Of a stretch of 64,000 nucleotides of DNA, positions 16,283 to 33,445 are shown piece after piece. The notes under the pieces are model-generated. The model was not told the DNA's origin. It ran no database searches and saw nothing but the letters and a program-made list of their open reading frames with translations. Every line of letters starts with the position of its first letter. The first letter of the stretch is position 1. The stretch is taken from positions 5,056,001 through 5,120,000 of the forward strand of contig OZ245838.1 of assembly GCA_965228735.1 (NCBI GenBank), given 5' to 3'. Both the position numbers and the translations under genes were made by a program. The DNA comes from Planctomycetota bacterium. Its GTDB lineage: Bacteria > Planctomycetota > UBA1135 > UBA2386.

Positions 16283-18193
16283 TCAGCTGTCGATCGTCGC
16301 CTTGCCCGCGTCGGACACGACGATGCCGAGCGTGTTCACCGCGTCGAGCACGGCCCACTGGTGGAACAGCTCGAGGCCGGCGTAGGACGGCGAGTTCGGG
16401 ATCGAGAACTGCGAGCTCGCCGTGCCGTTCCCGGAGGTGAACATGAACTGCGTGACATCGGGCGACGCGTAGATCGAGCAGCCCGGCGCGTTCGGCAGCG
16501 GCGCAGGCAGCGGCGTGCCGTTCGAGATCTGATCGCTGAAGCCGGAGAGGATGAACGCACCCGAACTCGGAGCCGCAGACGACAGCGTCACGTCGTAGCT
16601 GCCGCCGATCTGGGGCAGCCCGTTGTTGCCGAGGGCCGGCGACGCGTTCTGCGTGCTGTTGCAGAGCACGCGCCACGACGGGTTGTCGACGAGGCCGGAC
16701 AGCTGCCACTGCGGCGTCTGGGCGTCGCGCCAGTAGCCGTCGCCCGACGCGCCGCTCGACAACGTCGAGATCACGACGTTCTGCGACGAGCTGTCCATGC
16801 CGATGTAGAACCGGCCGGTCATGTTCACCGGGGCCGCGAAGACGGCCGTGTAGAAGCCCTGGCTCGGGCCGATCGTCATCGTCGTGCTCGCCGTCGGCGA
16901 CGACGCGGGCGTGCCGCCCACGTCGGCGTAGAGGTGGGCGGGGCGCACGACGTTGCCGCCCGTCGACTGGGTGAACAGGTCGAAGCCGACGACCTGCAGC
17001 GTGTTGCCGGCCGGGTTGTCGACCGCGTAGCAGTACTCGTTGTCGCGCGTCGCGCCGGTCAGGTTGCCGCCGTTCGGGTTCAGCTCCGGGCACCCGACGG
17101 TGACCGAGCCGGGGCAGCCCTGGCCGTAGTTGCTGAACGAGGCGTTGGACGGCCGCAGGATGTAGAGGCCGGTCGACTGGTCCGACGCCAGGATGTTGCC
17201 TGACGGCAGGAACGGGTAGACGCCCCAGCAGCCGCCGAAGCCGCCGGCCGGGCCGGGGAACGTGTCATACGACGCGACCTCGACCGGGTTGTTCGGGTCG
17301 CTGATGTCGATGCACTTGTAGCCCTCGGTGTACCAGCTCACGTGGCACTTGTCCCCGACGATGAACGCGTTGTGCGGGATCGTCGCCGAGTTGGGCGTGT
17401 ACTGCCCGAGTCCGATCGGGTTCGTCTTGTCGGTGATGTCCCAGAACTTGACGACGCCACCCGACTGCTCGTCGGTCGTGACGCAGATCGTGCCGGCGGC
17501 GTTCGGCCACGCGTTGTGCGTGAAGTTGCTCGGCGTCTGGCGGCTGCTGAGGCCGGCGGACGGCCACGGCAAGGACGCGGTCGCATCGAAGATGCGCAGC
17601 ACGCCGTTGTAGATCATCGAGCCGTAGGCGTAGCCGTTCTCCACGCACATGTCGTGGAAGTAGTTGCTGTTGCCGGAGCCGCGCGCGAAGCCGAGGAACG
17701 TCGGGTTCGCCGGGTTGGTGTTGAGGTCGTAGACCGGCGTGCCGGTGTTGCAGCCGACGAGGTAGAGCAGGCCCGTGCCGAGATCGACGCAGACGTTGTG
17801 CGCGTTGCCCGAGTTCTGCGTGCCGAACACGCCGACGGCCGTCGGGTTGTTGGGGTTGCTGAGGTCGAGGATCTGGAAACCCGCGGTCGACTCGGTGACG
17901 ACGTAGGCGTAGTTGCCGAACGTCCGGATGTCGCGCCACGTCGAGTTGCCGTAGGGGAACCACCCGGTCTCGATGGGCGTGGCCGGGTTGGTGACGTCGA
18001 CGACGACCGTGCCGGTGCGCGCGCCGAGCAGCGCGTATTCGTCGCCGTTCGGCGCGGTGTAGCCCCAGATGTCGTTGAAGGAGCCGTGGTTGTTGAACGT
18101 GCCGAGCAGCTGGCAGTTGACGCCCTGCGCGGGCAGGGCTGCGGCCAGGCCGACCAGACCGGTGGCCAGGAGGAGGGAACGGTGGATGTGCAT
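16283..18193 (-). CDS. Secreted choice-of-anchor B / LVIVD-repeat protein with shared C-terminal domain
   Basis: NDIWGY, WRDIRT, AHN, HNAW, TTDE, SWYTEG, WGVYPFLPSG; signal peptide ending AQ. Confidence 0.88.
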   Translation of the reverse strand: MHIHRSLLLATGLVGLAAALPAQGVNCQLLGTFNNHGSFNDIWGYTAPNGDEYALLGARTGTVVVDVTNPATPIETGWFPYGNSTWRDIRTFGNYAYVVTESTAGFQILDLSNPNNPTAVGVFGTQNSGNAHNVCVDLGTGLLYLVGCNTGTPVYDLNTNPANPTFLGFARGSGNSNYFHDMCVENGYAYGSMIYNGVLRIFDATASLPWPSAGLSSRQTPSNFTHNAWPNAAGTICVTTDEQSGGVVKFWDITDKTNPIGLGQYTPNSATIPHNAFIVGDKCHVSWYTEGYKCIDISDPNNPVEVASYDTFPGPAGGFGGCWGVYPFLPSGNILASDQSTGLYILRPSNASFSNYGQGCPGSVTVGCPELNPNGGNLTGATRDNEYCYAVDNPAGNTLQVVGFDLFTQSTGGNVVRPAHLYADVGGTPASSPTASTTMTIGPSQGFYTAVFAAPVNMTGRFYIGMDSSSQNVVISTLSSGASGDGYWRDAQTPQWQLSGLVDNPSWRVLCNSTQNASPALGNNGLPQIGGSYDVTLSSAAPSSGAFILSGFSDQISNGTPLPAPLPNAPGCSIYASPDVTQFMFTSGNGTASSQFSIPNSPSYAGLELFHQWAVLDAVNTLGIVVSDAGKATIDS

Positions 18194-18391
18194 GAGTGCA
18201 GGTGCCACGACGGTGCGGTGGCGAATCAGGAGGCGGGCGGGCCGGTGAAGTGTAGAACGACCCGGGCGAAGAGCCCACCCGGGTATTCATGCGCCGCTCC
18301 GCAAGTCGGGGTGTTGGCCCGGCGCGATGGCACGTTGCGTGCCGGCTGGCCCTCTCGCGGGCATCGAGTTCGTGGCTCGTCGCGCCGGTCC

Positions 18392-19468
18392 TTACTGCAG
18401 GACCGAGTGGATCGAGTTGGTTACCCGCGGCGTTCGCGGGGTCAGCCAATCGAGCCCCGCCGTATAGATGTCGAGGCCGACGAGCGCCGGCACGTGCGGC
18501 ATCGGCAGCACGAGGGTCCGGAGCGGGTCGTGGCCGATCGTGGGCATCTCGAGGAACGCGAGCGTGACCGCGGTCGCGAGGTCGATCTGGACGAGGCCGA
18601 ACGGGGTCGCGGTCGGGCCGGGGTCGAACGACGCGGCGAGCGTGACCCCGTCACCGCGCGGGGCGGCGACTCCGAGGCCCCAGGTCGCGCCATGGATCGG
18701 CGGTTGCACCTCGGCGAGGAACGGCAGCCGCAGGATCAGCGGTGCGGGTTGCACGGTGCCGAGGACCTGCGGCGGTTGTTCGTAGGCGTCGAGCCGGATG
18801 ATGCCGGGTGCGAAATCGATCGCTGCCACGAGGCCGCCGGTGTGGATCGTGAGCACGCCGCGGGCCCGCAGCAGGATCGAGCCGGCCGAGCCGTTGCCCG
18901 AACCGAGGAAGCCGGCCCCACCGTTGGCGAGCACCGATCCGCCGGCCCGGACGTCGAGGTCGCCTTCGCAGTCGATCACGATCGTGCCGCCGCCACCGCC
19001 GCCCGCGAACGTGCCGGTCGCCGGGCAGGAGAACTGCATCGGCGCGTGCGTCGTCATGCTGCCCCCCGGGCTGCCGCCCGCGAGATCGAACGGCAAGGGT
19101 GAGCCGTAGACGCCGGCGTGCTGCCCGTCGGTCGCCGGCGCGAACCAGCCGAAGCCGCAGCCTGGCCCTGCCATCGCGGTCGAGCCGTTCGTGCCCGCGC
19201 CGGTCGAGACGTGGCCGGGCCCGCCGTGCAGCGTCGTCCCGCTCACGGTCAACGTGCCGCGGACGTCGGCATCGCCGAGGCAGTAGATCTGCACCGGGTA
19301 GTCGCCGACGAAGTACACCGTCACACCCGTCGGGACAGCGATCGACGAGAAGTACAGAACGCCCTGCGTCGGGTTCACATCGATCGTGGTCGTGCTCGTC
19401 GGGGCCAGCGGGCCTTGGGCCGCGAGTGTGGTTGCGAGCGCCAGGGCGACGACATGGGTTGGGTGCAC
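18392..19468 (-). CDS. Secreted glycine-rich protein with shared C-terminal domain
   Basis: Signal ending LAAQ; GGGGGGTIVI and ANGG motifs. Confidence 0.75.
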   Translation of the reverse strand: MHPTHVVALALATTLAAQGPLAPTSTTTIDVNPTQGVLYFSSIAVPTGVTVYFVGDYPVQIYCLGDADVRGTLTVSGTTLHGGPGHVSTGAGTNGSTAMAGPGCGFGWFAPATDGQHAGVYGSPLPFDLAGGSPGGSMTTHAPMQFSCPATGTFAGGGGGGTIVIDCEGDLDVRAGGSVLANGGAGFLGSGNGSAGSILLRARGVLTIHTGGLVAAIDFAPGIIRLDAYEQPPQVLGTVQPAPLILRLPFLAEVQPPIHGATWGLGVAAPRGDGVTLAASFDPGPTATPFGLVQIDLATAVTLAFLEMPTIGHDPLRTLVLPMPHVPALVGLDIYTAGLDWLTPRTPRVTNSIHSVLQ

Positions 19469-19569
19469 GTCGCCACTCTAGCGTTCTGGCCCGAGGTCTG
19501 CCGGATCGGCGCATCCGGCCGGATGTCGCGTGAGTCGCGGGTGGCGGATCGACTACGATTCGCATCGCG

Positions 19570-20523
19570 ATGACGGATGACGTCACCCAATGTTCTCCCG
19601 TGTTCCGCGTCGGCCTCGACGGCGCGGGCGGCCTCGTCGACGTCGATGACGGCGAGGGCCGCTGGACGCACTACCGGCTCGAGGAGGACAGCGCCGAGTG
19701 GCTCGCCCAAGAGCGGCGCATTCCGCAGCCGGTCGCCGAAGCGTTGCTGGTCGGCGACGCGCGACCGCGGGCGCTGACCGCCGAGGGCGGCCTGCTCGTC
19801 ATCCTGCGCGGCGTGAACTGCAACCCCGGGGCCGATCCCGAGGACATGGTGTCGATGCGCGCCTGGGTCGAGGCCGACCGCATCGTGACGGTCAGCCCGC
19901 GCCGGGTCTTCGCCGTCGAGGACGTGCACGACGTGCTGCAGGAAGGGTGTGGCCCGGTCGATCCCGGCGCGGTGCTCGTCGCGATCATGGACCGCCTCGT
20001 CGACCGCATGCGGCCGATCGTCGACGGCCTCGAGGAGACGGCCGACGACCTGCACGAACGACTCCTGCGCAACGGGCCGGACGACCTGCAGCGACCGCTC
20101 GGCGGGCTGCGGCATTCGATCGTTCTCCTGCGCCGGCACATGGCGCCGCAGCGTGACGCGCTCACGCAGATGTCGCGCAACCGGCCGAAGCAGTTCTCCG
20201 AGGCGTCGCTGCTCGAGCTGCTGCAGATCGCCGACCGGCAGATCCGCTACGTCGAGGACCTCGACTCCCTGCGCGAACGCGCGGGCGTGCTGCAGGACGA
20301 GGTCGAGACGACCGTCGCCAACCGGCTCAACTCCAACATGTATCTGCTGTCGATCGTGGCAGCCGTGTTCCTGCCGCTCGGCTTCCTGACGGGACTGCTC
20401 GGCATCAACGTCGGCGGCATGCCCGGCATGGAGAGCCCGTGGGCGTTCTGGGTCGTCTGCTCCCTGCTCTTCGGGATCACCGTCGCCGAGATCTGGTGGC
20501 TGCGGCGCCGGCGGATGTTTTGA
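19570..20523 (+). CDS. zntB: CorA-family zinc/divalent cation transporter
   Basis: ILRGVN...PEDMVSMR, FLPLGFLTGLLGINVGGMP, two C-terminal TM helices. Confidence 0.88.
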   Translation: MTDDVTQCSPVFRVGLDGAGGLVDVDDGEGRWTHYRLEEDSAEWLAQERRIPQPVAEALLVGDARPRALTAEGGLLVILRGVNCNPGADPEDMVSMRAWVEADRIVTVSPRRVFAVEDVHDVLQEGCGPVDPGAVLVAIMDRLVDRMRPIVDGLEETADDLHERLLRNGPDDLQRPLGGLRHSIVLLRRHMAPQRDALTQMSRNRPKQFSEASLLELLQIADRQIRYVEDLDSLRERAGVLQDEVETTVANRLNSNMYLLSIVAAVFLPLGFLTGLLGINVGGMPGMESPWAFWVVCSLLFGITVAEIWWLRRRRMF

Positions 20524-20551
20524 GCACGGTTCCTCGCGGAGCGAGGCGCTG

Positions 20552-23500
20552 TCAGGCTGACTCCGACGCCGACGAAGTCGGAGTCGCTTTCGACTGACTC
20601 TCCGCACCCGCCGTCCGCATCTCGACCGGCCCGAGCGTTCGCATGTGCACGTCGCGCTGCGGGAACGGGATCTCGATGTCGTGATCGCGGAACGCCTGGT
20701 CGATGGCTTCGTGAAGCTGGTCGACGAGCTGCATCCAGACGTCGCGCGACGCGATGAAGACGCGCAGCTCGAGGTCGAGCGAACTCTCGCCGAAGCGGCG
20801 GAAGATCGAACTCGGCGCGGGCTCGCTGAGGACGTGCTGGTTGGCCTTCGCGGCCTCCAGCAGCAGCTTGCGCGCGAGCTGGGTGTTCGAGCCGTAGGCG
20901 ACGCCGACGGGAATGACGACGCGCGTGATCGGGTCGGTCAAGGTCCAGTTGATGAGGCGCGAGGTGACGAACTCCTTGTTGGGCACGATCATCTCGCGAC
21001 GATCGAAGTCGACGATCGTCGTCGCGCGCATCCGGACCTGTTGCACGAAGCCGTCGACGTCGCCGACGGTCACGAGGTCACCGACGCGGATCGGGCGTTC
21101 GAACAGGATGATGATGCCTGACACGAAGTTGGCGAAGATCTCCTGCAGGCCGAAGCCGAGACCGACGGAGACCGCGGCGACGAGCCACTGCACCTTGCCC
21201 CAGTCGACCCCGATCGTCGAGAACGCGATCACGATGCCGACCATCGCGATGGCGTAGCGCACGAGCGTGGTGATCGCGGCGCGTTCGCCGGCGTGCGTCC
21301 GCAGGCGCTGCAGGATCGACAGTTCGAGCAGGCCCGGGATGTTTCGCGCCGCGGCGAACGTGATCAGCGCGACGAGGAGCGAGAGCAGCAGGTTGCCGAG
21401 CGTGATCGCCGATGGCGCGCTCGTGACCTCGCCGTTCGCGCCCGTCTGTTCGGCCGCGATCTCCCAGAGTTGGATGGAGTCGAGTCCGCGCAGGGCCGGC
21501 AGGGCATCGCTCCAGATGCTCCAGAGCGCGAAGGCGGCGAGGATCAGCAGCCCGCCGCTGAGCAGCTTGCGCCCCTGCTGATCGACTGCCGTCAGGCTCA
21601 CCGTCTCGGTCGGCAGCTGCGGCGCCTCGTTCGCCGCCTCGTTGCCGCCCTCCGCGGCCTTCGCCCTGGCTGCGGCGCGCAACGCCTCGGCCTTCGCCAG
21701 CGCCAGTCGACGCTTGGCCATGAGCATCCAGCGCAGGCCGATCTCGTAGACGATCAGGGTCAGTGCGAGCACGAGGATCGAGTCCTCGAGTCGGTGCAGC
21801 AGCTCGAGCGCGCTGAAGTGGTAGCCCGCGGCGGCGAGACCCGCGAGCGTCGTCGGGGCGAGCACGCCGATCGCGAAGTAGACCCGCCGACGGCCGAGCG
21901 GCGGCGGCGCGTTGCCCTTGGAGAACGCGCCCGTCCTCGGACTGAGGATGCGCGCGAGCCAGACGGCGGTGACGACCAGCACCGCGATGAGCACGAGGCG
22001 CTCGAGCATCGTACTCCACTTGGCGTTGCCGTGGCCGTTCAGGGTGTGCAGGACGAACGTGAGCGGCAGCACCGTCGGCAGGAACCACACCAGGCTGCGG
22101 CGCAGCAGCTTCGAGCGCGACGCCGGCCAGCGCAGGTGGCTCTCCGCGAGGCCGTGCGGTCGCACGACCTGGCGGAACAGCATCGCGCTCCAGAACACGG
22201 CCGCCGCGTGCACGAGCCCGGCGCTGATCGCGGTCGCGAAATCGCCGATGCCCGGCGTCGCCTGCAGTCGTGAACCGACGTGCCATGCCAGGAGCGGGAA
22301 GCCGCTGGCGACGATCACGGTGAGCACCGTCGTCCAGGCGGTCGGCGCGAAGCTCGTCGCGCGGCTGCTCGCGGCCTGTTCGCCGAACGCGGCGATGCGC
22401 CGGCGAGCGCTGCGGCTGGCGAGCATGAGGCCGATCGCCAGCAACGCGCCGATCGCGAACGGTCCGGGGCGGCGATCGAACGCCGTGACGAAGGCCGGCG
22501 GCAGTTCGGCCCAGTGGCGCGGATCGAGCAGCCAGGTCGTGGCTTCGGCGACGTGGGACCAGTTGGTCTCCCACACGGGTGCCGTGCTGCGGATCCACAG
22601 CACGCGTTCGTTGATGTACTCCGAGAAGACCTGCGCGATCTTCGCCAGGGTCGCTTCTTCGCTCGTGAGGTCGATGAGCGCCTTGCGGTAGTCGTCGAGG
22701 TCGACCTCGAAGCGCTTGAAGTAACCCTCCCGCTGCGAGAGCAGCGTCGAACCCTCGGCTTCGATGCGGGCGCGTTCGCTCGCGCGGATGTCGTTCGGCA
22801 ACCTCGCGACCGCCGCGTCGAAGATCTGCTGGCGCGTCTCCTCGAAGGCGCGGATCCGGTCCTGGAGCTCGAAGACCGCGATCTGCGCCTCGGCGACCTT
22901 CGGATAGCGTGCGTCGGCGCGTGCGAGCAGCCGGCGGGGGTTCGGCAGGAGGGCCTTCTCCTGGCGCAACTGCAGCCCGATCACGTCCGTCAGCCCGTAG
23001 CCGCTGATCTTGTCGACCCGGTCCTTGATGGCCGCGAACCGCTTCTCGAGCTGGTCGAGGCGCTTGGTCGTGCGCGTGTGATCGCTCTTGACCCGATCGA
23101 GTTCCGCAATCCAGCCATCCCGTTCCGCGGTCAGGTCTTCGTTGGCTTTCGCGAGCTCGGTCCAGACGCGGTGGGCCTTGTCGGCCTGTTCCGACGCCTC
23201 CTTCGAGTCCTCGGCGGCCTTGTCGCGGCGCCGTTTCTGGGTCGCCTCGTCGAGGATGGTGACCCGTTCGGCCGCGTGTTCGGCGACTCTCGTCAGCCAC
23301 TCGATCTCGGCCGCGATCAGGGGGCGCTCGGCTTCGAGTCGCCGTCTTCGGGCCTCGAGTTCGGTGACCCTGGCCTCGAGCGCCGCGATCTCGGCCGCTC
23401 GATTCAGCTGCCTCGCCTGGGTCAGGCTGCTCGGCTCCCCCTCGACGGTGGGCAGCACCTTGGCGTCGGCTCGGGCTGCGGCCTCGGTTGCCGCGGCGAT

Positions 23501-23959
23501 CTGCTCGGGAAGGCTCGTGAGCTGGGCCGCGCGCCCCTGCTGGTCGTTGCGTTTGCTCTCGAGCGCGGCGGCGGCCTTCGTGCTCTCGGCCTGGGCGCTC
23601 TGGAGCTGCTCCTGGAGCTGCGCGAGCTCGACCGACGTGAGCTCGGCTGGCTTGGGCAAGGCCGGCAGCTCCTCCTCGAGTCGGGCCCGTGCCGCCGCGG
23701 TCTTGTCCGATGCGGCCTCCGTCGCTTCGTTCGCCGTCGTGACGTTCTGGCGCGAGGTCTCGGCTGCCTTCGCGAACGCGATCGCGGCGTCGTAGGCCTG
23801 CTTGGCCTTGGCCTTGTTGTCCTCGCCGAGTTCGGCCGACTGGGCTGCGGCGGCCTGCCGCTGGGTCAGGGCCTCGACGGACAGCGCCGCTTGCTCCTGG
23901 GCCATGAGCGGCGCGAGGAGACCGGAGAGGAGCAGGCCGCAGAGGACGAAGAGCCGCAT
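20552..23959 (-). CDS. mscK: Large MscS-family mechanosensitive channel (MscK/KefA-like)
   Basis: Signal peptide, long coiled coil, multi-TM region, GLGFGLQEIFANFVSGIIILFERP, IPFPQRDVH. Confidence 0.92.
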   Translation of the reverse strand: MRLFVLCGLLLSGLLAPLMAQEQAALSVEALTQRQAAAAQSAELGEDNKAKAKQAYDAAIAFAKAAETSRQNVTTANEATEAASDKTAAARARLEEELPALPKPAELTSVELAQLQEQLQSAQAESTKAAAALESKRNDQQGRAAQLTSLPEQIAAATEAAARADAKVLPTVEGEPSSLTQARQLNRAAEIAALEARVTELEARRRRLEAERPLIAAEIEWLTRVAEHAAERVTILDEATQKRRRDKAAEDSKEASEQADKAHRVWTELAKANEDLTAERDGWIAELDRVKSDHTRTTKRLDQLEKRFAAIKDRVDKISGYGLTDVIGLQLRQEKALLPNPRRLLARADARYPKVAEAQIAVFELQDRIRAFEETRQQIFDAAVARLPNDIRASERARIEAEGSTLLSQREGYFKRFEVDLDDYRKALIDLTSEEATLAKIAQVFSEYINERVLWIRSTAPVWETNWSHVAEATTWLLDPRHWAELPPAFVTAFDRRPGPFAIGALLAIGLMLASRSARRRIAAFGEQAASSRATSFAPTAWTTVLTVIVASGFPLLAWHVGSRLQATPGIGDFATAISAGLVHAAAVFWSAMLFRQVVRPHGLAESHLRWPASRSKLLRRSLVWFLPTVLPLTFVLHTLNGHGNAKWSTMLERLVLIAVLVVTAVWLARILSPRTGAFSKGNAPPPLGRRRVYFAIGVLAPTTLAGLAAAGYHFSALELLHRLEDSILVLALTLIVYEIGLRWMLMAKRRLALAKAEALRAAARAKAAEGGNEAANEAPQLPTETVSLTAVDQQGRKLLSGGLLILAAFALWSIWSDALPALRGLDSIQLWEIAAEQTGANGEVTSAPSAITLGNLLLSLLVALITFAAARNIPGLLELSILQRLRTHAGERAAITTLVRYAIAMVGIVIAFSTIGVDWGKVQWLVAAVSVGLGFGLQEIFANFVSGIIILFERPIRVGDLVTVGDVDGFVQQVRMRATTIVDFDRREMIVPNKEFVTSRLINWTLTDPITRVVIPVGVAYGSNTQLARKLLLEAAKANQHVLSEPAPSSIFRRFGESSLDLELRVFIASRDVWMQLVDQLHEAIDQAFRDHDIEIPFPQRDVHMRTLGPVEMRTAGAESQSKATPTSSASESA

Positions 23960-24063
23960 CGGACCGACCATCATCCACGCCGATCTGCGATCTTCCACCC
24001 GCGAAGCAGCGAACCCTTCGTTCGCGCAAGCGTCGAGCTTGGGCGTGCCTTCGCGGACCGCGT

Positions 24064-25527
24064 ATGGTCGCCGACCCCATGCCGAACCCGTTTCGCGGAA
24101 TCTCCAAGGTGCAGGCCGTTCGCAGCCTCGCGGTCGTGCTGCTCGCCGCGCTCGCCACGAACGTGGCCGTTCGGGCACAGGGCGATGGGCGGCGCCCCAA
24201 CATCGTCTACATCCTGCTCGACGATGCCGGCTGGGGTGACCTCGGTTGCTACGGCCAGCGGCGGCTGGCGACGCCGCACATGGATCGCCTCGCGCGCGAG
24301 GGCATGCGATTCACGCAGCACTACTCTGGCAGCACGGTCTGCGCGCCGACGCGCAGCGTGCTCATGACGGGACAGCACACCGGGCACACGCCCGTGCGCG
24401 GCAACGCCAAGGCAGCCGCCGCGCCCGAGCGCGTGTTCCCGATCGGCGGTGACGTGGTCACCGTCGCTGCGCTGCTGCACGCGGCCGGCTACGCGACGGG
24501 TGCGTTCGGCAAGTGGGGGCTCGGCGGCCCGGGCAGCGACAGCGACGCACTCGCGCTCGGCTTCGACCACTTCGCGGGGTTCTACAGTCAGGCGTTCGCG
24601 CACGACTTCTACCCGCGCTGGCTGTGGCGCGACGGCGAGAAGATCGCGACTGACCGCGCGGTCTACGCCCACGACTTCTACTTCGATGCCGCGCTCGAGT
24701 TCGTGCGCGGCAGCAAGGACCGACCGTTCTTCTGCTACGTGCCGGTGACGATCCCGCACGCCGCGATGCAGGCGCCGGAGGAGTATCACGACCGCTTCCG
24801 CGAGCAGTACCCGCAGTTCGACGACAAGGTCGGTCGCTACGGCGGCGACAGTCGCCGCAGCGAAGTGCAGAACCCGATCGCCGGGTTCGCAGCGATGATG
24901 ACGAAGCTCGACGACGACGTCGGCAGGCTGCTCGCGTTGCTCGTCGAGCTCGGGCTCGACGACGACACGATCGTCATGCTGTCGTCGGACAACGGCCCGC
25001 ACGGTGAAGGCGGCCACGACCCGAAGTTCTGGGACAGCAACGGCCCGTTGCGCGGCAAGAAGCGCGATCTCTACGACGGCGGGATTCGGGTGCCGCTGCT
25101 CGCGCGCTGGCCGGGCCGCATCGCGCCGGGGACGGTGTCGGAGCACATCAGTGCGCACTGGGACATGCTGCCGACATGGTGCGAGATCGCCGGCGTCGCG
25201 GTGCCGGACGAGCTCGCGGTCGACGGCATCTCGATGGTTCCCGAACTCACCGGCGAGGGCGTGCAGCGCGCGCACGGCTATCTCTACTGGGAGTTCTACG
25301 AGGGCAGCGGCAAGCGCGCGTTGCGCCTCGGCCAGTGGAAGGTCGTGCAGAACGGACTGCACGAGCACGAGGACCCGCCGATCGAGCTCTACGACATCAC
25401 GCGCGATCCGGGCGAAGCGACCGACGTCGCGGGCGAACACCCGGACGTGATCGCGCGAGCCCGCAAGCTGTTCGCGGCAGCGACGACACCGAGCCCGACC
25501 TGGCGCTTCCGCCACGGCCAGAAGTGA
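24064..25527 (+). CDS. Arylsulfatase (Cys-type formylglycine sulfatase)
   Basis: PNIVYILLDD, CAPTRSVLMTG, GKWGLG, SSDNG. Confidence 0.95.
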   Translation: MVADPMPNPFRGISKVQAVRSLAVVLLAALATNVAVRAQGDGRRPNIVYILLDDAGWGDLGCYGQRRLATPHMDRLAREGMRFTQHYSGSTVCAPTRSVLMTGQHTGHTPVRGNAKAAAAPERVFPIGGDVVTVAALLHAAGYATGAFGKWGLGGPGSDSDALALGFDHFAGFYSQAFAHDFYPRWLWRDGEKIATDRAVYAHDFYFDAALEFVRGSKDRPFFCYVPVTIPHAAMQAPEEYHDRFREQYPQFDDKVGRYGGDSRRSEVQNPIAGFAAMMTKLDDDVGRLLALLVELGLDDDTIVMLSSDNGPHGEGGHDPKFWDSNGPLRGKKRDLYDGGIRVPLLARWPGRIAPGTVSEHISAHWDMLPTWCEIAGVAVPDELAVDGISMVPELTGEGVQRAHGYLYWEFYEGSGKRALRLGQWKVVQNGLHEHEDPPIELYDITRDPGEATDVAGEHPDVIARARKLFAAATTPSPTWRFRHGQK

Positions 25528-25626
25528 CCCGTACGGAACCTGGTTCATGCTGCCGGCCGCGGGTGCGTTGTCTCGCCGGCGGCGGTTTCGGCGGCCGGCA
25601 GCATGAACCAGGTTCCGTACGGGTCA
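25525..25626. repeat. MITE/REP-like element with perfect 36-bp inverted repeats
   Basis: 25525-25560 is the exact reverse complement of 25591-25626; 30-bp spacer. Confidence 0.85.
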
Positions 25627-27858
25627 GTTGCCCTTCTTCTTGCGCTTGCGCTTGCGGGAGCGGCCGGCGCTGCTGTCGCCGTGGCTCGACGGCAGCTTCG
25701 ACTTCTGCAGCAGGGCGATCTGGCTGCGCAGTGGGGCTTCGCCCTCTTGCGGCTCGATGCGTTCGTAGGTGCCGTCGTGGAGCACGCGGCGCGCCTTCTG
25801 GTTGTCGCGCAGCGACACTTCCAGCACCTCGCTGCGCACGCGCGCCTTGAGCTCGGGGTCGAGAATCGGGAACGCGACTTCGACGCGGCGGTCCAGGTTG
25901 CGGATCATCCAGTCGGCCGATGAAAGGTAGACGAGCGGGTCGCCGGCGTTCTCGAAGCAGTAGATGCGGCTGTGTTCGAGGAAGCGGTCGACGATCGCCA
26001 CGACCTTGATGTTCTCGCTGAGCCCCGGGACACCGGGCCGCAGGCAACAGACGCTGCGCACGCAGAGCTCGATCTGCACGCCGGCCTGCGACGCTTCGTA
26101 GAGCGCGGTGATCACCTGCGGGTCGGCGAGGTTGTTGATCTTGGCGCGGATGCCGGCCGGCTTGCCGGCCTTGTGGTTCTTGATCTCCGCCTGGATGAGG
26201 GCGAGCGTCTTGTCACGCAGCGCGAACGGCGCCACGAGCAGGTGCTCCATGTGCGGCACGCGCGTGTGTCCCGTGATCATGTTGAAGGTCTCCGCGACCT
26301 CCTCGCCGATCTCGGGGTGCGCCGTAAGGAGGCCCGCGTCGGTGTAGAGCCGCGCGGTCGTCGGGTTGTAGTTGCCGGTGCCGAGGTGGCAGTAGCGCCG
26401 GAAGCCCTCGTCCTCGCGGCGGACGACGAGCGTGCACTTGGCGTGCGTCTTGAGGCCGACGATGCCGTACACGACGTGCACACCGGCCTTCTCCATGCGC
26501 CGCGCCCAGAGGATGTTGGCCTCCTCGTCGAACCGCGCCTTGAGCTCGATGATCGCGGTGACCTGCTTGCGTTGCTGTGCCGCCTCGATCAGGGCCTCGA
26601 CCATCGGGCTCTTGCTGCCCGCGCGGTAGATCGTCTGCTTGATGGCCATCACGCGCGGGTCGTGCGCGGCGAACTTGACGAAGTCCTCGACCGTCGCGAA
26701 CGAGTCGTACGGGTGGTGCAGCAGCACGTCGCCCTCGCGCAGGTCGGCGAACATCTCGCTCGCGCTGCCCCATCGCCACGCGCGGCGCGGCTTGGCCGGC
26801 TTGTCCTTGAGCAGCGGCAGGTCGAGCCGGTCGTACAGCTCCATGATGCGGCCGAGGTTGACCGGGCCGTCACAGAGATAGACGTCGTCGGGCTCGAGCG
26901 TGAACGCCTTGATGAAGCGGTCGATGACGTCCGGGTGCGCGCCCTGGTCGATCTCGAGGCGCACGGGTTCGCCGCGGCGCCGCTTGACGAGCTCCTTCTC
27001 GATCGAGCTCATCAGGTCGGTCGACTGGAACTCGTCGACGTCGATGTTGCTGTCGCGCGTGACGCGGAACGTCGTCACGTGCAGCACGTCGAGGCCGGGG
27101 AACAGCTCCTTGAGATTGTCGCGGACGATCTCGGCCGTGAAGACGTGCACGCTCTTGCCGTCGAGCTCGGGCACGCGCTGGATGCGCGGCAACGTGCGCG
27201 GCACCTGCACGACGGCCATGCGTGGGGTGCGGCGCGAGTGCCGCGGGTCGAGCAGCAGGATCGCGACGTTGAGCGACTTGTTGAGCAGGACCGGGAACGG
27301 GTGCGCCGGGTCGACCGCGAGCGGCGTGAGGATCGGGTAGATCTCCGCCTTGAACTGCTGGTCGATCCACTTCTGCTGCTTGCTGGTGAGCTGGTCGATC
27401 GCCTCGAACTCGATGCCTTCCTTGGCGAGTTCGGGCAGCAGCTCGTCGCGCCACGCCTTGTGCATCTCGACGCTGAACGCATGCGCGTCCTTGCGGATGC
27501 GGTCGAGCTCTTCCTGCGGCTTGAGGCCGTCGGGGTTCTCGCCGACGAGACCGGCTTCGACGAGCTCCATGACGCCGGCGACGCGGATCTCGAAGAACTC
27601 GTCGAGGTTGGTGCTCGAGATCGCCAGGAACTTGACGCGTTCGAGCAACGGGTTGGTCGGGTCGCGCGCCTCCTCGAGGACGCGCCGGTTGAACTGCAGC
27701 CACGACTGCTCGCGATTGACGAACAGCTCGGCCCGGTCGGCTTTCGTCACGTCGGGGCCGATGCTCTGCGCGGCCGGCGGGGGCTCCTGACCGGGCTTGC
27801 GGTCGCCGAAGTCGTCGTCGGCGAGGCGGTGAGTCGGGAATCCTGGTGAGTCGGTCAT
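25624..27858 (-). CDS. ppk1: Polyphosphate kinase 1
   Basis: NREQSWLQFNRRVL, HPFP, LHHPYDSF, ELKARFDE, GTGNYN, RFLEHSR, SADWMIRNLDRRVE. Confidence 0.97.
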   Translation of the reverse strand: MTDSPGFPTHRLADDDFGDRKPGQEPPPAAQSIGPDVTKADRAELFVNREQSWLQFNRRVLEEARDPTNPLLERVKFLAISSTNLDEFFEIRVAGVMELVEAGLVGENPDGLKPQEELDRIRKDAHAFSVEMHKAWRDELLPELAKEGIEFEAIDQLTSKQQKWIDQQFKAEIYPILTPLAVDPAHPFPVLLNKSLNVAILLLDPRHSRRTPRMAVVQVPRTLPRIQRVPELDGKSVHVFTAEIVRDNLKELFPGLDVLHVTTFRVTRDSNIDVDEFQSTDLMSSIEKELVKRRRGEPVRLEIDQGAHPDVIDRFIKAFTLEPDDVYLCDGPVNLGRIMELYDRLDLPLLKDKPAKPRRAWRWGSASEMFADLREGDVLLHHPYDSFATVEDFVKFAAHDPRVMAIKQTIYRAGSKSPMVEALIEAAQQRKQVTAIIELKARFDEEANILWARRMEKAGVHVVYGIVGLKTHAKCTLVVRREDEGFRRYCHLGTGNYNPTTARLYTDAGLLTAHPEIGEEVAETFNMITGHTRVPHMEHLLVAPFALRDKTLALIQAEIKNHKAGKPAGIRAKINNLADPQVITALYEASQAGVQIELCVRSVCCLRPGVPGLSENIKVVAIVDRFLEHSRIYCFENAGDPLVYLSSADWMIRNLDRRVEVAFPILDPELKARVRSEVLEVSLRDNQKARRVLHDGTYERIEPQEGEAPLRSQIALLQKSKLPSSHGDSSAGRSRKRKRKKKGN

Positions 27859-28098
27859 CGGCGAGTGCGGCCCCACACTCTAGGGCAGCACATGGTGAAC
27901 TCGCCCGGGGACCGCCCGGACGGGTGAGAATCTTCCGTGAAGATCGTCGCCCGGCGTGTCCCAGCCTGAGCCTCCCGGGGCCGAGACGTTCAGCGGCGCT
28001 CCCGGCGCGGCCGATTCGAGGCGGCGAGAGGGTGGCCGCCAGACGCCTGAAATCGAGATTGCGGCCGGGCTGCCCCAGCGACACGAGGAGGGCCAGAC

Positions 28099-29367
28099 AT
28101 GACGCTACAGACGACGGATCTACTGCACGCGATGGTTGCCAAGGGGGCGTCTGACCTCCACGTCAAGGCGGGTTCACCGCCCGGGTTTCGAATCGACGGC
28201 GAGGTCGAGCAGCAGGTCGAGCACGGGGTGCTCGAGCCGCAGCACACCGCCGCACTGGCGCGCCAGATCATGACGGACGACCAGTGGGAGCGCTTCGAGA
28301 ACGAGAAGGACATCGACTTCAGCTACGCGCTTCCCGGGATCGCCCGCTTCCGCGTCAATGCGCTGCACCAGCGCAACGCCTGCGGCTTCGTCATCCGCGT
28401 GATCCCGGACGAGATCCCGGACTACAACAAGCTCGGCCTGCCCGAGATCTGCCTCAAGCTCGCGGCCAAGCCGCGCGGTCTCGTCCTCGTCACCGGGCCC
28501 ACGGGCTCGGGCAAGTCGACGACGCTCGCGGCGATGATCGACTACATCAACCAGACCGAGGCCGGGCACATCCTCACGATGGAAGACCCGCTCGAGTTCA
28601 TCCACCCGGACAAGAAGAGCTACGTCACGCAGCGCCAGATCGGCCAGGACTGCGCGTCGTTCCGCGAGGGTCTGCGGCGCGCCTTGCGTCAGGACCCCGA
28701 TGTGATCCTGATCGGTGAGATGCGCGACCTCGAGACGATCTCGATGGCGATCACCGCGGCGGAGACGGGCCACCTGGTGTTCGGCACGCTGCACACGACG
28801 AGCGCGATCTCGACCGTCGACCGCATCATCGACGTGTTCCCGACCGACGCGCAGCAGCAGGTGCGCGTGCAGATGGCGAGCACGCTGCAGGGCGTGATCT
28901 CGCAGACGCTCGTGCCGAAGATCGGTGGCGGTCGCGTTGCGGCGCACGAGATCCTGGTCGGCACGGACGGCGTCAAGTCGCTCGTGCGCGAGGGCAAGAC
29001 GTCGCAGATGCTCAACCTCATGCAGACCGGCCGCGCGCACGGCATGCAGACGCTCGAGGATCAGCTCGTCAACCTCTACGCCGAGGGCAAGATCACGGCC
29101 GATGACGCGGTCGCGCGCGCCAACCGCCCCGACGACGTGAGGAAGCGCACCGAGTCGACGCAGGTGCGGCCGTCGGCCGCGACCGAACAACCGGGTGCGG
29201 GCATGGGCATGGCGCCGAAGGCCGGCGTCGGCGCGGGAGCGTCGCGCCGCGACATGGGCGACCCGAGCGGCGGCATGGGTGACATGGCCGGCGCCTCGCC
29301 GCGCCGCCCCGCGACCGGCGGCGGCGTGCAGGGGCTGAAGATGCGGCGGCCACAGAAGCGCCTGTAG
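28099..29367 (+). CDS. pilT: Type IV pilus retraction ATPase, PilT family
   Basis: GPTGSGKST, EDPLE, ALRQDPDVILIGEMRD, AETGHLVFGTLHT. Confidence 0.92.
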   Translation: MTLQTTDLLHAMVAKGASDLHVKAGSPPGFRIDGEVEQQVEHGVLEPQHTAALARQIMTDDQWERFENEKDIDFSYALPGIARFRVNALHQRNACGFVIRVIPDEIPDYNKLGLPEICLKLAAKPRGLVLVTGPTGSGKSTTLAAMIDYINQTEAGHILTMEDPLEFIHPDKKSYVTQRQIGQDCASFREGLRRALRQDPDVILIGEMRDLETISMAITAAETGHLVFGTLHTTSAISTVDRIIDVFPTDAQQQVRVQMASTLQGVISQTLVPKIGGGRVAAHEILVGTDGVKSLVREGKTSQMLNLMQTGRAHGMQTLEDQLVNLYAEGKITADDAVARANRPDDVRKRTESTQVRPSAATEQPGAGMGMAPKAGVGAGASRRDMGDPSGGMGDMAGASPRRPATGGGVQGLKMRRPQKRL

Positions 29368-29396
29368 CTCGGCGCTCGGCCGCGGCCGCCGGCGGC

Positions 29397-29852
29397 TCAC
29401 GGCATGATCGTGATGCTGAGACCGCCGTTCATCAGCACGCACCCCGGGTTCACGGGGTCGTTCGGCTGGGTGCAGCCGTGCTGGAACCAGAACGCGGCGC
29501 CGACGAGCCCCGGGTTGTTGGGGATCGGGAACGGCACGAGGAAGCCCGGGTTGATGAGGATCACGAGCGGATTGCCGTCGACGAGCTGACAGCCCGGGTC
29601 GCACGTGATCGGCGGCAGCAGCGGCGTCGGCGTCGCGGGCATCACGCCCATGATGTCGATGTGCAGCCCGCTGCCGCACGGCGGCAGCGGCGAGATCGCG
29701 AAATTGGTGTTGCCGACCTGCGGGTTGCCACCGCCGAAGCCGCTGAAGCCGGGGAAGCTCGGGCAACCGCCCGGCAGGATGCCGACCTGCGCGGTAGCCA
29801 TCGTGGCAAGGGCGCAGAGCACGAACGCGAGGAATGGCAGAGTGCGGAGCAT
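29397..29852 (-). CDS. Small secreted protein made almost entirely of the shared C-terminal domain
   Basis: Signal MLRTLPFLAFVLCALATMATA|Q; 151 aa. Confidence 0.75.
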   Translation of the reverse strand: MLRTLPFLAFVLCALATMATAQVGILPGGCPSFPGFSGFGGGNPQVGNTNFAISPLPPCGSGLHIDIMGVMPATPTPLLPPITCDPGCQLVDGNPLVILINPGFLVPFPIPNNPGLVGAAFWFQHGCTQPNDPVNPGCVLMNGGLSITIMP

Positions 29853-29999
29853 CGCCGGATTGTAGTCGCCGGTCCCGAGCGGCCCGTTCCCGTTGACCTT
29901 CGGTACACGATCGGCGCAACTCTCTCGCCGCATCCGCAGAGGGGTTTCCGATCGCCGGGTTTTCGTGCGCGAGATCGTCCGTAAGGTGCCGCGCCCGGA

Positions 30000-32201
30000 A
30001 TGTCCGCCCCGATCCGCAACACCTTGCTCGGCCTGCTTGCCGTGCTGCCGTTCGCCGTGGCCGTGGCGGCGCAGGGACCGCGGCTGAAGGACGCGAGACG
30101 AACGGCGGAGATCGGGCGCATCGCGAGCGCGGATGCGCCGCGGCTCGACGGCGTGCTCGACGACCCGTGCTGGCAGAGCGCGCCGGCGATCGGCGACTTC
30201 GTCATGGTCGAGCCGTGGGAGGGACGGACGCCCGACCAGCGCACCGAGATCCGGTTGCTGCACGACAGCGACAACTTCTACATCTACCTCTACTGCTACG
30301 ACGATCAGCCACAGCACATCCGTGCCACCCAGCGGTCGCGCGACGCGCGGCTCGATCCCGACGATCGCGTCGAGTTCATCCTCGACTCGTTCGAGAACCG
30401 GCGCACGGGCTACTTCTTCCAGATCGGCGCGGGCGGTTCGCTCGGCGATGCGCTGATCTCGCAGAACGGCAACGGCTTCGACAAGCCGTGGGACGCGGTC
30501 TGGGATGCGCGCGCGCGCGTCGTGGCCGACGGCTGGGTCGCGGAGGCCGTGATCCCGTTCCGCAGCATCCCGCGGCAGGAAGGGGCGCTGGCCTGGGGTT
30601 TCAACTGCCGGCGCTACCTGCGCGAGCGCAACGAAGAGCACCAGTGGGCCAACGCGGTGCAGAACGTGCCGTTCTTCCGGATCAGCGAGCTCGGCCGCGT
30701 CACGGGGCTCGGTCCGATCAAGCCCGGCATCGGGCTCGACGTCGTGCCCTTTCTCGCGGCCGGGATCTCGCGCGATCGCGCGATCGATCGTGATGACTGG
30801 GACTTCGACCCCGACGCGGGTGGCGAGCTCTACTACCGCATCACGCCGTCGATGACGGTCGCCGCGACGCTGTTCACCGACTTCGCGCAGACGGAGAACG
30901 ACGGCCGGCAGATCAACTTCAACCGCTTCCCGCTGTTCTTTCCCGAGAAGCGCGACTTCTTCCTCGACGGCATCAGCTACTTCCAGTTCGGCGCGCAACG
31001 CGCGGGTGGGACGACGTTCTTGCCGTACTTCACGCGTCGCATCGGACTACAGCGCGGCCAGATCGTGCCGCTGCTCGGCGGCGTCAAGCTGACGGGCGAG
31101 GCGGGGCCGTTCGAGGTCGGCCTCATCGACGTGCAGACCGACGAGACGGCGAGCCTCGACAGCGAGAACCTCGGCGTAGCCAGGCTCAAGTACGCGGCCG
31201 GCGAACAGACGACGATCGGGATGATCGCGACCAACGGTGATCCGACGAGCGCCGGCGAGAACCGGGTCGGCGGCCTCGACTTCTACCATCGCTGGCCCGA
31301 GCTGGTCGGCGACATGGACCTGCAGCTGTCGATGGACGTCGTCGGCTCCACGGGGTCGAGCACCGACGACGACGGCGAGAGCTTCGGCTTCCAGCTGCAG
31401 AGTCGCGGCACCGAGTTCGAGTTCGAGATCGGAACGCGCTGGGTGAGCGACGACTTCGATCCGAGCCTCGGGTTCGTGCGGCGGCGTGGTTCGCGAGCCT
31501 CGGAGATCGAGGCCGCGTATCGCCCGCGGGTGTCGGAGGGCGGCCTGATCCGGAGCTTCAACTTCGCGGTCGACGTCGACCGGCAGGACGAGTGGGACGG
31601 CAAGACGCAGGTGATGAGCTACGGCCTCGACGAGGTCGGCGTGCTGTTCCACAGCAGCGACCGCGCATGGTTCTTCGCGTCCCGCAACTTCGAGTTCGTC
31701 GATCGCGACTTCACGCTGTTTCGCGACTCGACCCCCGTCGCTGCGGGCGACTATTGGGCGACGCGCTACGGCTTCCGGATCCAGACGGGCGATCACCGGC
31801 CGTGGGACGTGCAGCTGACCGCGTCGACGGGCGACTTCTTCGACGGCGAGCGCGATTCCATCGGCGTCGACCTCAACCTGCGGTTCTCCGGGTTGATCGA
31901 GGTCGGCGCCGAGTACGACGTGTCCCTCGTGGACCTCGGGCCGGGCCGGAAGTTCGACGCGCACATCGCCGCGGGCCGGTGCGACGTCCACTTCACGCCG
32001 TTTCTCAGCGTGTTCAACCTCCTGCAGTTCGACAACGAGTCGAACAACATCGGCTGGCAGACCCGGCTGCGCTGGATCTACACGCCGGGCTGCGACTTCT
32101 TCGCCGTCGTCGGCAGCAGCTGGGGACGGGAGGACGACGGCTCGTTCGTGCCGGCCGAACAGGCCCTCAACCTCAAGATCCAGCACCTGTTGCGGTTCTA
32201 G
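30000..32201 (+). CDS. CBM9-like / DUF5916 outer-membrane protein
   Basis: LDGVLDDPCW, WVAEAVIPF, TDFAQTE, FPLFFPEKRDFFL, terminal Phe. Confidence 0.85.
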   Translation: MSAPIRNTLLGLLAVLPFAVAVAAQGPRLKDARRTAEIGRIASADAPRLDGVLDDPCWQSAPAIGDFVMVEPWEGRTPDQRTEIRLLHDSDNFYIYLYCYDDQPQHIRATQRSRDARLDPDDRVEFILDSFENRRTGYFFQIGAGGSLGDALISQNGNGFDKPWDAVWDARARVVADGWVAEAVIPFRSIPRQEGALAWGFNCRRYLRERNEEHQWANAVQNVPFFRISELGRVTGLGPIKPGIGLDVVPFLAAGISRDRAIDRDDWDFDPDAGGELYYRITPSMTVAATLFTDFAQTENDGRQINFNRFPLFFPEKRDFFLDGISYFQFGAQRAGGTTFLPYFTRRIGLQRGQIVPLLGGVKLTGEAGPFEVGLIDVQTDETASLDSENLGVARLKYAAGEQTTIGMIATNGDPTSAGENRVGGLDFYHRWPELVGDMDLQLSMDVVGSTGSSTDDDGESFGFQLQSRGTEFEFEIGTRWVSDDFDPSLGFVRRRGSRASEIEAAYRPRVSEGGLIRSFNFAVDVDRQDEWDGKTQVMSYGLDEVGVLFHSSDRAWFFASRNFEFVDRDFTLFRDSTPVAAGDYWATRYGFRIQTGDHRPWDVQLTASTGDFFDGERDSIGVDLNLRFSGLIEVGAEYDVSLVDLGPGRKFDAHIAAGRCDVHFTPFLSVFNLLQFDNESNNIGWQTRLRWIYTPGCDFFAVVGSSWGREDDGSFVPAEQALNLKIQHLLRF

Positions 32202-32386
32202 GAACGAGCGTCGGCCGTCGTTCTGGCGTTGCCCCCGGTCGTAGCGGGACTACGAGTCCCCTGGCGGAATCCTGAGCGTTGTCCCGCGTCGCGACCGCGG
32301 CCGCGGGGATCGCACCGGGACCGCCACGATCCGGTAGAATAGAATCGCCTCTCTGCGCCACCCCGCAAACCCCGAGAGCTGCCCGA

Positions 32387-33445
32387 ATGCGACTGCACCT
32401 GACCCCGTTCTTCCTCCTCGCCGCGATGGCGTCGGCCCAGACACTCGTCACCGCGCCGACTTCGCCCGCCGGCAACGTCGACCGTCCGTTCGCCGGTGGC
32501 GTCGGTCGCTACCAGCAGTGGTACTCCGCGTTCTCGCTCAAGGGACCGACCGGCTACACCACGCCCGTGCGCCTCGAGCAGGTCGAGTTCTTCGCTGGCT
32601 CGATCCAGTCGTCCAACGCGAACATGATCGACATGGAGGTGATGATCGGGCACGGCAAATCGTTCGGCCTGCAGGGTCTGTTCGGCAGCAACTTCGACGA
32701 CCCGCCGGTGACCGTGCTGCCGCGTCAGAACGTCCAGCTCGCCGCCGGCGCGCCCGGCGCGGTCGTGATGACGGTGCCGTTCGCGACCGAGTTCACGTGG
32801 GACTTCACGCGGCCGATCGTGATCGAGGTCCGGATCCACGGCAACAGCAACGGCAATCAGCCGTTCCAGTACAACAACCGCGGCACCCTGTCGGGTTTCG
32901 GGCAGGCGGCGCGGCTCTACGCGGCTGGCAACCCGAGCGCGACGAGCGGCACCGTGCAGTCCAACATCGGCTTGGTGACGCGCTTCTCCGGCCGCGATGG
33001 CATCGTGCTGCAGTACGGCGCGGGCTGTCCGGGCGAGGGCTTCTTCGTGCCCCAGTACGACGTGGGCAATCTGCCGTGGCCCGGCATCCAGTGGAGTCAT
33101 CAGCTGACGAACGCATCGTCGCAGCGCTTCGCGATCTGGATGATCGGTGACAACCGCAACACGTTCGGCACCGTGACGCTGCCCGTCGATGTCGGCAGCC
33201 TGATCGGCTTCTCGCCGAACGGCTGTCTCTTGCACCAGAACGCGGTCGCGACGGTCTGGGCCAATACGGTCGGCGGCGGTCCGGGTTCGGGCGCCGCGAC
33301 GGTCACCGTCAGTCTGCCGCCCGTCGGCACCTACATCGGCGCGTCGCTGTTCACGCAGTTCTTCGTGCTCGATCCCAACGCGCCGAGCGGCCTCATGGCA
33401 TCGTCGAACGCCAACTGGTCGATCGTCGCCCCGGTCGGCGGCTGA
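32387..33445 (+). CDS. Secreted protein with shared C-terminal domain
   Basis: Signal ending ASAQ; YGAGCPG; terminal LFTQFFVLDP...SSNA. Confidence 0.8.
   Translation: MRLHLTPFFLLAAMASAQTLVTAPTSPAGNVDRPFAGGVGRYQQWYSAFSLKGPTGYTTPVRLEQVEFFAGSIQSSNANMIDMEVMIGHGKSFGLQGLFGSNFDDPPVTVLPRQNVQLAAGAPGAVVMTVPFATEFTWDFTRPIVIEVRIHGNSNGNQPFQYNNRGTLSGFGQAARLYAAGNPSATSGTVQSNIGLVTRFSGRDGIVLQYGAGCPGEGFFVPQYDVGNLPWPGIQWSHQLTNASSQRFAIWMIGDNRNTFGTVTLPVDVGSLIGFSPNGCLLHQNAVATVWANTVGGGPGSGAATVTVSLPPVGTYIGASLFTQFFVLDPNAPSGLMASSNANWSIVAPVGG

Follow-up and report, generated by a model that had tools for sequence, protein, structure and literature searches.

A tail domain shared by four exported proteins

A 64,000 nt stretch of a planctomycete genome (assembly GCA_965228735.1, contig OZ245838.1, positions 5,056,001 to 5,120,000; called the window below) contains four genes for proteins, designated A, B, C and D, that start with a signal peptide and end with a similar tail domain, which is the subject of this work. 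An initial annotation had proposed that the four C-termini are one domain on unrelated exported proteins. The four open reading frames (ORFs) were confirmed with the coordinates and strands listed in Table 1, and the end motifs and PxxG motifs quoted in that annotation for A, B, C and D are present in the sequences. The genome examined (label G000) comprises 7.19 Mb in one contig with 69% GC, and its gene set consists of 5,322 genes predicted by an in-house gene caller.

Table 1. The four window proteins and the predicted parts of their architecture (positions in the window; aa, amino acids; pLDDT, predicted local distance difference test).
Feature	Position	Strand	Basis
Protein A, 636 aa: Sec-type signal peptide, choice-of-anchor B / LVIVD passenger, split tail domain	16283..18193	-	TIGR04312, E 6e-59, 200 bits, cut-off 100
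A, predicted signal peptide, residues 1-22, then Gln	18128..18193	-	sequence reading and heuristic class
A, choice-of-anchor B passenger, residues ~36-347	17153..18088	-	NCBIfam match
A, first strand of tail domain with GxGC motif (356-360), residues ~350-364, Cys360	17102..17146	-	model strand 352-356, pLDDT ~93
A, inserted 148-residue Cys-closed beta module in first loop of tail domain, residues 365-512	16658..17101	-	alignment and model
A, main body of tail domain, residues 513-636; conserved Pro599, Gln612, Ser627, Cys572	16286..16657	-	model and profile
Protein B, 358 aa: signal peptide, Gly-rich passenger, divergent tail domain	18392..19468	-	profile
B, divergent tail domain, residues ~249-358, without Cys pair or Gln	18395..18724	-	E 1.6e-6 and 1.2e-9
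Protein C, 151 aa: signal peptide (1-21) and domain alone (29400-29789)	29397..29852	-	profile
Protein D, 352 aa: signal peptide, passenger, tail domain	32387..33445	+	profile
D, tail domain, residues ~208-352; Cys214, Cys280	33008..33442	+	profile

In a search of C-terminal windows the tail domain scored with E values of 1e-31 in A, 1e-9 in B, 1e-11 in C and 1e-15 in D; the profile scores of A, C and D are not independent, because all three were seeds of the first profile. B was lost from the model on iteration, and only a search without filters brought it back. B is atypical in having neither of the two domain cysteines nor the near-invariant Gln, and no paralog of its passenger was found in the genome. 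The passenger of D gave no match in Pfam or NCBIfam. C agrees with the earlier description of one protein as little more than a signal peptide plus the domain, and about eight such stand-alone proteins exist in the genome.

Judged from alignment and model, the tail domain of A is split by the inserted module. Seven proteins of the genome, A among them, have this module at the same site. The model of residues 345-636 (pLDDT 94) has a strand at the GxGC segment. By these predictions, passengers are attachable before, after or inside the domain.

Size, position and conservation of the family

The first profile was built from only the four window tails and matched 97 ORFs at E<1e-4, 94 of which end at most 10 aa after the match. 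After iteration the profile matched 293 ORFs at E<1e-5; the best E value in the reversed proteome was 0.005. With filters off, the 5,322 genes yielded 311 matches at E<1e-5 and 352 at 1e-2, and no reversed match below 0.1. When the search was restricted to the last 150 aa, 353 of 4,906 C-terminal windows were matched versus 1 of 2,306 mid-protein decoy windows. Across these searches 311-365 of the approximately 5,300 genes, or about 6-7%, carry the domain. Significant alignment of the four C-termini and hundreds of matches throughout the genome, with 0-1 matches in the decoys, confirm that they form one domain on unrelated exported passengers.

The domain is present in one copy per protein, and two copies were never found at E<0.1. 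Among the 293 carriers it is C-terminal in 273, followed by an extension of 16-46 aa in 9, and placed directly after the signal peptide in 11. In these 11 proteins the domain forms the mature N-terminus, which does not support a signal confined to the C-terminus, of the type IX secretion system (T9SS) or PEP-CTERM type, as considered initially. N-terminal placement was also seen in 3 of the 150 top relatives and in 3 of the 33 carriers encoded by a comparison genome from another class (G177; 2.31 Mb, 86% complete).

Median pairwise identity of the domain is 24%. The conserved positions are a Gln (93%), a Pro (92%), two Gly (about 80%), a Ser/Thr-Asn near the end and two Cys. In 180 of 292 carriers both cysteines are present together (odds ratio 17), which fits a predicted disulfide. 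A GxGC motif and a later GC had been taken as a hint of such a bond in three of the window proteins; the cysteine pair is borne out by its co-occurrence, but in A the GxGC motif precedes the remainder of the domain by 148 residues.

Database matches and predicted fold

The domain is unnamed, as had been suspected: no Pfam or NCBIfam match to it was obtained with the window proteins, their relatives or their paralogs. In a sequence search of the PDB the best E value was 0.26, and matches near protein C in the ESM Atlas comprised only unnamed Planctomycetota clusters. Literature searches, which left most subscription journals and bioRxiv supplements outside their scope, returned no paper on the tail domain.

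The tail model of A (pLDDT 90.7) is all-beta with 9 strands of at least 3 residues. Its structural matches are generic immunoglobulin-like (Ig-like) beta-sandwiches with Z values up to 8.7; a T9SS tail is absent among the matches listed, which does not exclude one further down. The best Foldseek match is NPC2 (E 1.6e-4), whose ML domain is likewise a hydrophobic Ig-like sandwich with cysteines. However, the template modelling (TM) score of this match was 0.39 and the root mean square deviation 11, NPC2 was absent from the top 50 of a wide structural search, and no sequence match was found. The domain has a median grand average of hydropathy (GRAVY) of +0.46 versus -0.09 for the passengers, and 7.6% versus 14.8% charged residues. 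We therefore describe it as a predicted hydrophobic Ig-like beta-sandwich of about 125 residues.

Carriers and passengers

Signal peptide and lipobox classes were assigned by in-house heuristics, which left 78 of 290 carriers unclassed, many of them with mis-called starts. Of the 290, 203 have a signal peptidase I (SPI)-like signal, 9 a lipobox-like sequence (most of them doubtful) and none a twin-arginine translocation (Tat) motif; a membrane segment after the signal peptide is predicted in only 4. The other soluble exported proteins comprise 716 with SPI signal versus 256 lipoproteins, so that the lipobox odds ratio for carriers is 0.12. One lipoprotein without the domain has passenger modules in common with 7 carriers. 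In 197 of 203 carriers and 545 of 716 other exported proteins the residue after the predicted SPI site is Gln; these fractions are inflated because the classifier seeks Gln first. This Q-rule is called specific to Bacteroidetes in an earlier publication (PMC5837995).

Low charge and a high content of Thr, Ser, Gly and Asn are typical of extracellular proteins. In the passengers Lys, Glu and Arg are scarce and these four residues abundant, with Lys at 0.6% in carriers versus 2.8% in other exported proteins. The composition score exceeds 0.15 in 288 of 298 carriers but in only 45 of the remaining 575 SPI proteins; among the lipoproteins, 27 of 162 exceed it. Ten of those 45 SPI proteins turned out to be carriers in a more sensitive search, and about 27 of the 45 resemble divergent carriers by eye.

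Pfam scans of 59 passengers identified 13 as Kelch-type, 5 as Rax2/DUF5122, 2 as FG-GAP, 2 as di-haem cytochrome c and 2 as DUF7452, with one each from the sortilin, trypsin, sulfatase and beta-lactamase families and no match for the remainder. Named choice-of-anchor domains are also among the passengers. The tail is kept in 114 of the 120 best homologs of A, and the 6 misses look truncated; this homolog set consists of close kin and includes no tail swap.

Distribution among genomes

All 61 genomes searched in the class have the domain. Of 301 genomes of the phylum 60 match, 55 in many copies and 5 in a single one, largely in an all-or-none manner by family. It is thus restricted by lineage, in line with the initial proposal. 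Among 39 further genomes, 7 close relatives have 55-108 matches and 16 from outside the Planctomycetota have none; the other 16 comprise 13 without and 3 with one match. In a protein library without taxonomy 29,288 clusters match at E<=0.001, and most of the named ones are hypothetical proteins.

Single copies elsewhere are mostly on passengers that also occur in G000, e.g., a di-haem protein with about 50% identity. In two outside genomes (L290, L291) 320 further C-terminal residues follow the domain. This part has no homolog in G000 and is possibly that lineage's own tail. In some relatives a domain gene lies near a PilT-like gene, which we attribute to gene density.

Tail swap and subtype switch

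One carrier heads a TonB-receptor/ExbBD/TonB operon (G000 4017108-4019012) that is conserved with G177. Among the 120 best homologs of its passenger (PF28492; mostly 65-79% identical), 34 cluster with the tail described here, 42 have a longer sister tail and about 25 end, by eye, in a dockerin-like repeat, while the rest have other or truncated ends. Ten of the homologs have a precomputed PF00404 match, and P0218 passes the model NF041540, 'GC-type dockerin domain-anchored protein'. On this passenger the domain takes the place of a named anchor domain, the dockerin, of other planctomycetes. A further unnamed tail type was seen in the homologs P0258, P0259 and P0274.

The tail described here (type A) and the sister tail vary reciprocally within one family of 13 genomes (f2): 11 genomes with 12-53+ sister tails have 4-9 type-A matches, and the two with 61-67 type-A matches have no sister tail. 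This reciprocal expansion suggests a co-evolving partner. Beyond the 11 genomes, the query used retrieved no sister tail from the remaining 66, the two f2 genomes included; a later profile detected one in G000. Profile alignment of the two types covered 119 columns with a probability of 47% and an E value of 2e-4 (reversed control 0.1%), and both Cys, the Gln and the final Ser-Asn are in register. On this alignment the two tails are likely homologous.

Search for a partner

A partner screen of G000 versus G177 provided 219 reciprocal-best exported candidates, 174 of which were scanned with Pfam while about 45 were left out. Among some 30 candidates without Pfam match only a giant pseudopilin-like protein was profiled, so that the screen is partial.

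The best co-distribution was that of a family of lipoproteins of 940-1,400 aa with extracellular composition and a partial YVTN-type propeller (G000 2569111-2572065 and 2572632-2575679). At E<=1e-12 it was found in 54 of 59 multi-copy genomes but in none of the 5 single-copy and none of the 69 negative genomes, with four weaker partial matches in outside genomes. In 26 of 32 positive genomes, by our count, the lipoprotein gene lies on the same strand within about 5 kb of a gene for a CPBP-like protease with intact motifs, which itself occurs in 31 of 32 positive, 2 of 5 single-copy and 18 of 43 negative genomes. The pair was seen at G000:C1:2567183-2575679, L153:13718-17400 and L272 and is syntenic across classes. 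As the positive genomes are probably one clade, and kin are not independent, we treat the lipoprotein as a lead and not as evidence of binding; that it is the partner of the domain appears to us a long shot. Further large lipoproteins with extracellular composition and no or weak family matches (window 50665-53331; G000:C1:2418873, 2655148, 2657890, 2695762 and 5166246) are other possible scaffold candidates.

Phylogenetic profiling had been recommended as a way to a translocon or sortase. It did reveal the co-distributed lipoprotein, but the export machines under test occur much more widely than the domain does. As exclusive partners we rejected a twin-secretin locus (31 of 32 positive, 5 of 5 single-copy and 38 of 43 negative genomes), the giant pseudopilin-like protein (31 of 32, 4 of 5 and 16 of 43, respectively), the CPBP-like protease alone, given its presence in negative genomes, and an exosortase, which has its own few PEP-CTERM matches. 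Cohesin was rejected as it was not found in 5 carrier genomes, and PorV (NF033709) because no protein in 5 carrier genomes passed the cut-off, while the control gave a match. SprA (TIGR04189) was not found in 5 genomes, but no control genome gave a match either. By a heuristic search, no large unknown outer-membrane barrel shared with G177 was found.

Carrier genomes hold 5-13 secretins. The twin-secretin locus (G000:C1:6767480-6784599; L239; L123) combines genes for two large secretins with TPR, MotA/ExbB and a pair of ExbD-like genes; a gene for a MamK-family actin, which exceeds the NF040964 cut-off, is nearby. The secretin of this locus occurs in 74 of 80 phylum genomes, and the locus possibly encodes a proton-driven secretin machine. 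Together with a published study (10.1101/817700), the MamK-family actin suggests that this lineage may be the OM190/'Saltatorellota' group. The pseudopilin-like protein, with 1,735 aa and without Pfam match, belongs to a type II/type IV-pilus-like operon (G000:C1:1397583-1412826; L240; L133) present in 51 of 80 phylum genomes. The exosortase-like gene is part of an exopolysaccharide locus (G000:C1:996106-1012355), and the genome has only 3 PEP-CTERM matches.

Surroundings of the window genes

The genes between A, B, C and D are unrelated housekeeping or mobile genes, some of them with putative names. Because the intervening genes are unrelated, A to D represent a scattered sample of a genome-wide family, and a single operon is ruled out for these dispersed genes. 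A CBM9-like and DUF5916 protein with an outer-membrane-type C-terminus is encoded between C and D (window 30000-32201). Just downstream of gene D lie the RNA domain of a group II intron (RF02005) and an ORF resembling a reverse transcriptase (window 33555-35394), and an ORF with the same ends as the intron-associated one is also found at G000:C1:2580079-2581296. At window 9745-12846, sigma-70 regions 2 and 4 are fused to several carboxypeptidase-regulatory-like domains; the genome contains a cluster of about 52 membrane proteins similar to this protein.

Discussion

The distribution of the domain resembles that of several known terminal modules. GC-type dockerin (NF041540)/PF00404 tails of other Planctomycetota take the same terminal slot on the same passenger, and like dockerins the domain is found in many copies per genome on unrelated exported proteins and is interchangeable with another terminal module on one passenger. 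The expansions of the two did not coincide in the sampled genomes. The domain has about 125 aa and is predicted to be all-beta, whereas dockerins have about 60 aa with two Asp-rich loops, and the dockerin models PF00404 and NF041540 gave no match on carriers. Cohesin-dockerin 'planctosomes' in Phycisphaerae are proposed as a hypothesis in an earlier publication (PMC6461901).

The T9SS type-A C-terminal domain (TIGR04183/PF18962) of Bacteroidota ends hundreds of Sec-exported passengers, choice-of-anchor proteins included, as an Ig-like sandwich without membrane helix, and the same holds for the domain as predicted here. The T9SS domain is described as a seven-strand 3+4 Ig-like sandwich (PMC11285876). 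In contrast to it, the domain is longer, has a Cys pair, can also be N-terminal, stand-alone or split, and no PorV was found with it. TIGR04183 and PF18962 did not match the 4 window proteins, 84 relatives or 59 paralogs; a genome scan gave 0 of 5, with the control silent. PEP-CTERM/exosortase and MYXO-CTERM/myxosortase (a CPBP protease) also tag many proteins at one terminus, but their motif, membrane helix and basic tail are lacking in the domain, which ends a few residues after the last strand. For MYXO-CTERM proteins, sorting by a CPBP protease and a signal with a membrane helix are described in PMC11980579. An exosortase-like gene is present in 4 of 5 carrier genomes, and the 3 separate PEP-CTERM matches here can account for it. 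The domain would work like a dockerin or a T9SS tail, yet in these comparisons it qualifies as neither.

We put forward, with confidence and doubt in balance, that the domain is a surface-docking handle which binds a lineage-specific envelope partner, one copy per protein. The passenger would be exported by Sec, passenger and domain would fold in the periplasm, and passage across the outer membrane would occur via a general type II-like secretin machine. The domain would then bind a protein partner and hold the passenger at the surface without cleavage. Its free position and the loop insertion are easier to reconcile with a folded surface for binding than with a free signal at the terminus, and anchoring or docking fits the data better than a cleaved export tag. 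The tail swap, the subtype switch and the co-distributed lipoprotein also favour docking. The scarcity of lipoproteins among the carriers points to an alternative to a lipid anchor, and extracellular-type composition and the propeller and enzyme passengers agree with a place at the surface. Of the proposed function in export, anchoring or surface assembly, the anchoring or docking part is thus favoured, while the strict C-terminal signal of T9SS or PEP-CTERM type is not supported.

Several points weigh against a docking handle. With about 93% of the copies at the C-terminus, an export signal would fit as well, and surface location is deduced from composition and passenger type; planctomycete enzymes with signal peptide may be periplasmic or extracellular according to a published account (PMC11131199). 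That dockerin expansions (at least 9 matches) were present in 4 of 43 domain-negative versus 0 of 32 positive genomes would favour docking, but this exclusion comprises 4 genomes and is not significant. An earlier full-length-row profile comparison of the subtypes covered 36 columns with a probability of 1.9%. Cohesin (PF00963) was found in 0 of 5 carrier genomes, with the control giving a match, and no repeat scaffold is common to G000 and G177 except one propeller lipoprotein. The candidate lipoprotein has 1-4 matches per genome versus hundreds of carriers, 5 positive genomes (83-93% complete) have no match to it, and its co-distribution may only mark the clade.

The strongest competitor, which we consider unlikely but well worth keeping in mind, is an outer-membrane export signal following T9SS-like logic, in which a type II-like secretin recognises the folded domain and retention is separate or absent. 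The C-terminal bias, the single copy per protein and the Ig-like fold as in T9SS tails agree with this, as does the fact that the domain marks most soluble proteins of extracellular composition. Haem c maturation occurs in the periplasm, so that haem c passengers imply maturation before passage, and the secretins of the carrier genomes, including those of the twin-secretin locus, and the giant pseudopilin-like operon could provide the machinery. However, the 11 N-terminal copies, the approximately eight stand-alone proteins and the loop insertion argue against an export signal, and so do the results for PorV and for a large outer-membrane barrel common to G177. In addition, both twin secretins and the giant pseudopilin-like protein are found in domain-negative genomes.

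Somewhat less probable in our view is an autonomous anchor that needs no protein partner and binds an outer-membrane lipid, exopolysaccharide or itself, forming a coat with the stand-alone proteins as filler. The hydrophobic, charge-poor composition of the domain, the sterol carrier NPC2 as best Foldseek match, the stand-alone copies and the persistence of single copies outside would all be explained. But the NPC2 match is poor, the reciprocal subtype switch suggests a co-evolving partner, and the 320-residue part after the domain in two outside genomes looks as if the domain had ceased to be the terminal tag there. A passive role as structural cap or folding aid, with spread by duplication through periplasmic proteins and no part in targeting, is very improbable: the generic fold, the low identity and the 7 of 19 G177 carriers whose best G000 passenger homologs have no domain are consistent with it, but two copies per protein are never seen, dockerin replaces the domain one for one, periplasmic-type enzymes (by composition) do not have it, lipoproteins rarely do, and homologs of A retain it.

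A docking handle could be part of a larger scheme, in which the domain would be the cargo tag of an undescribed surface-display system across several Planctomycetota classes, an Ig-like handle that sits at one or the other end of the cargo or surrounds it, docking 6% of the proteome on the clade-specific large lipoprotein beside the CPBP protease, with handle subtypes that switch between lineages and with dockerins in the same slot in other planctomycetes. Taken as a whole we regard this scheme as speculative and rather improbable.

With one profile, several hundred proteins per genome can now be marked across the class as probable surface proteins. The one-for-one dockerin swap ties the domain to the 'planctosome' idea, and the subtype switch within f2 offers a route to the partner by comparison of close genomes.

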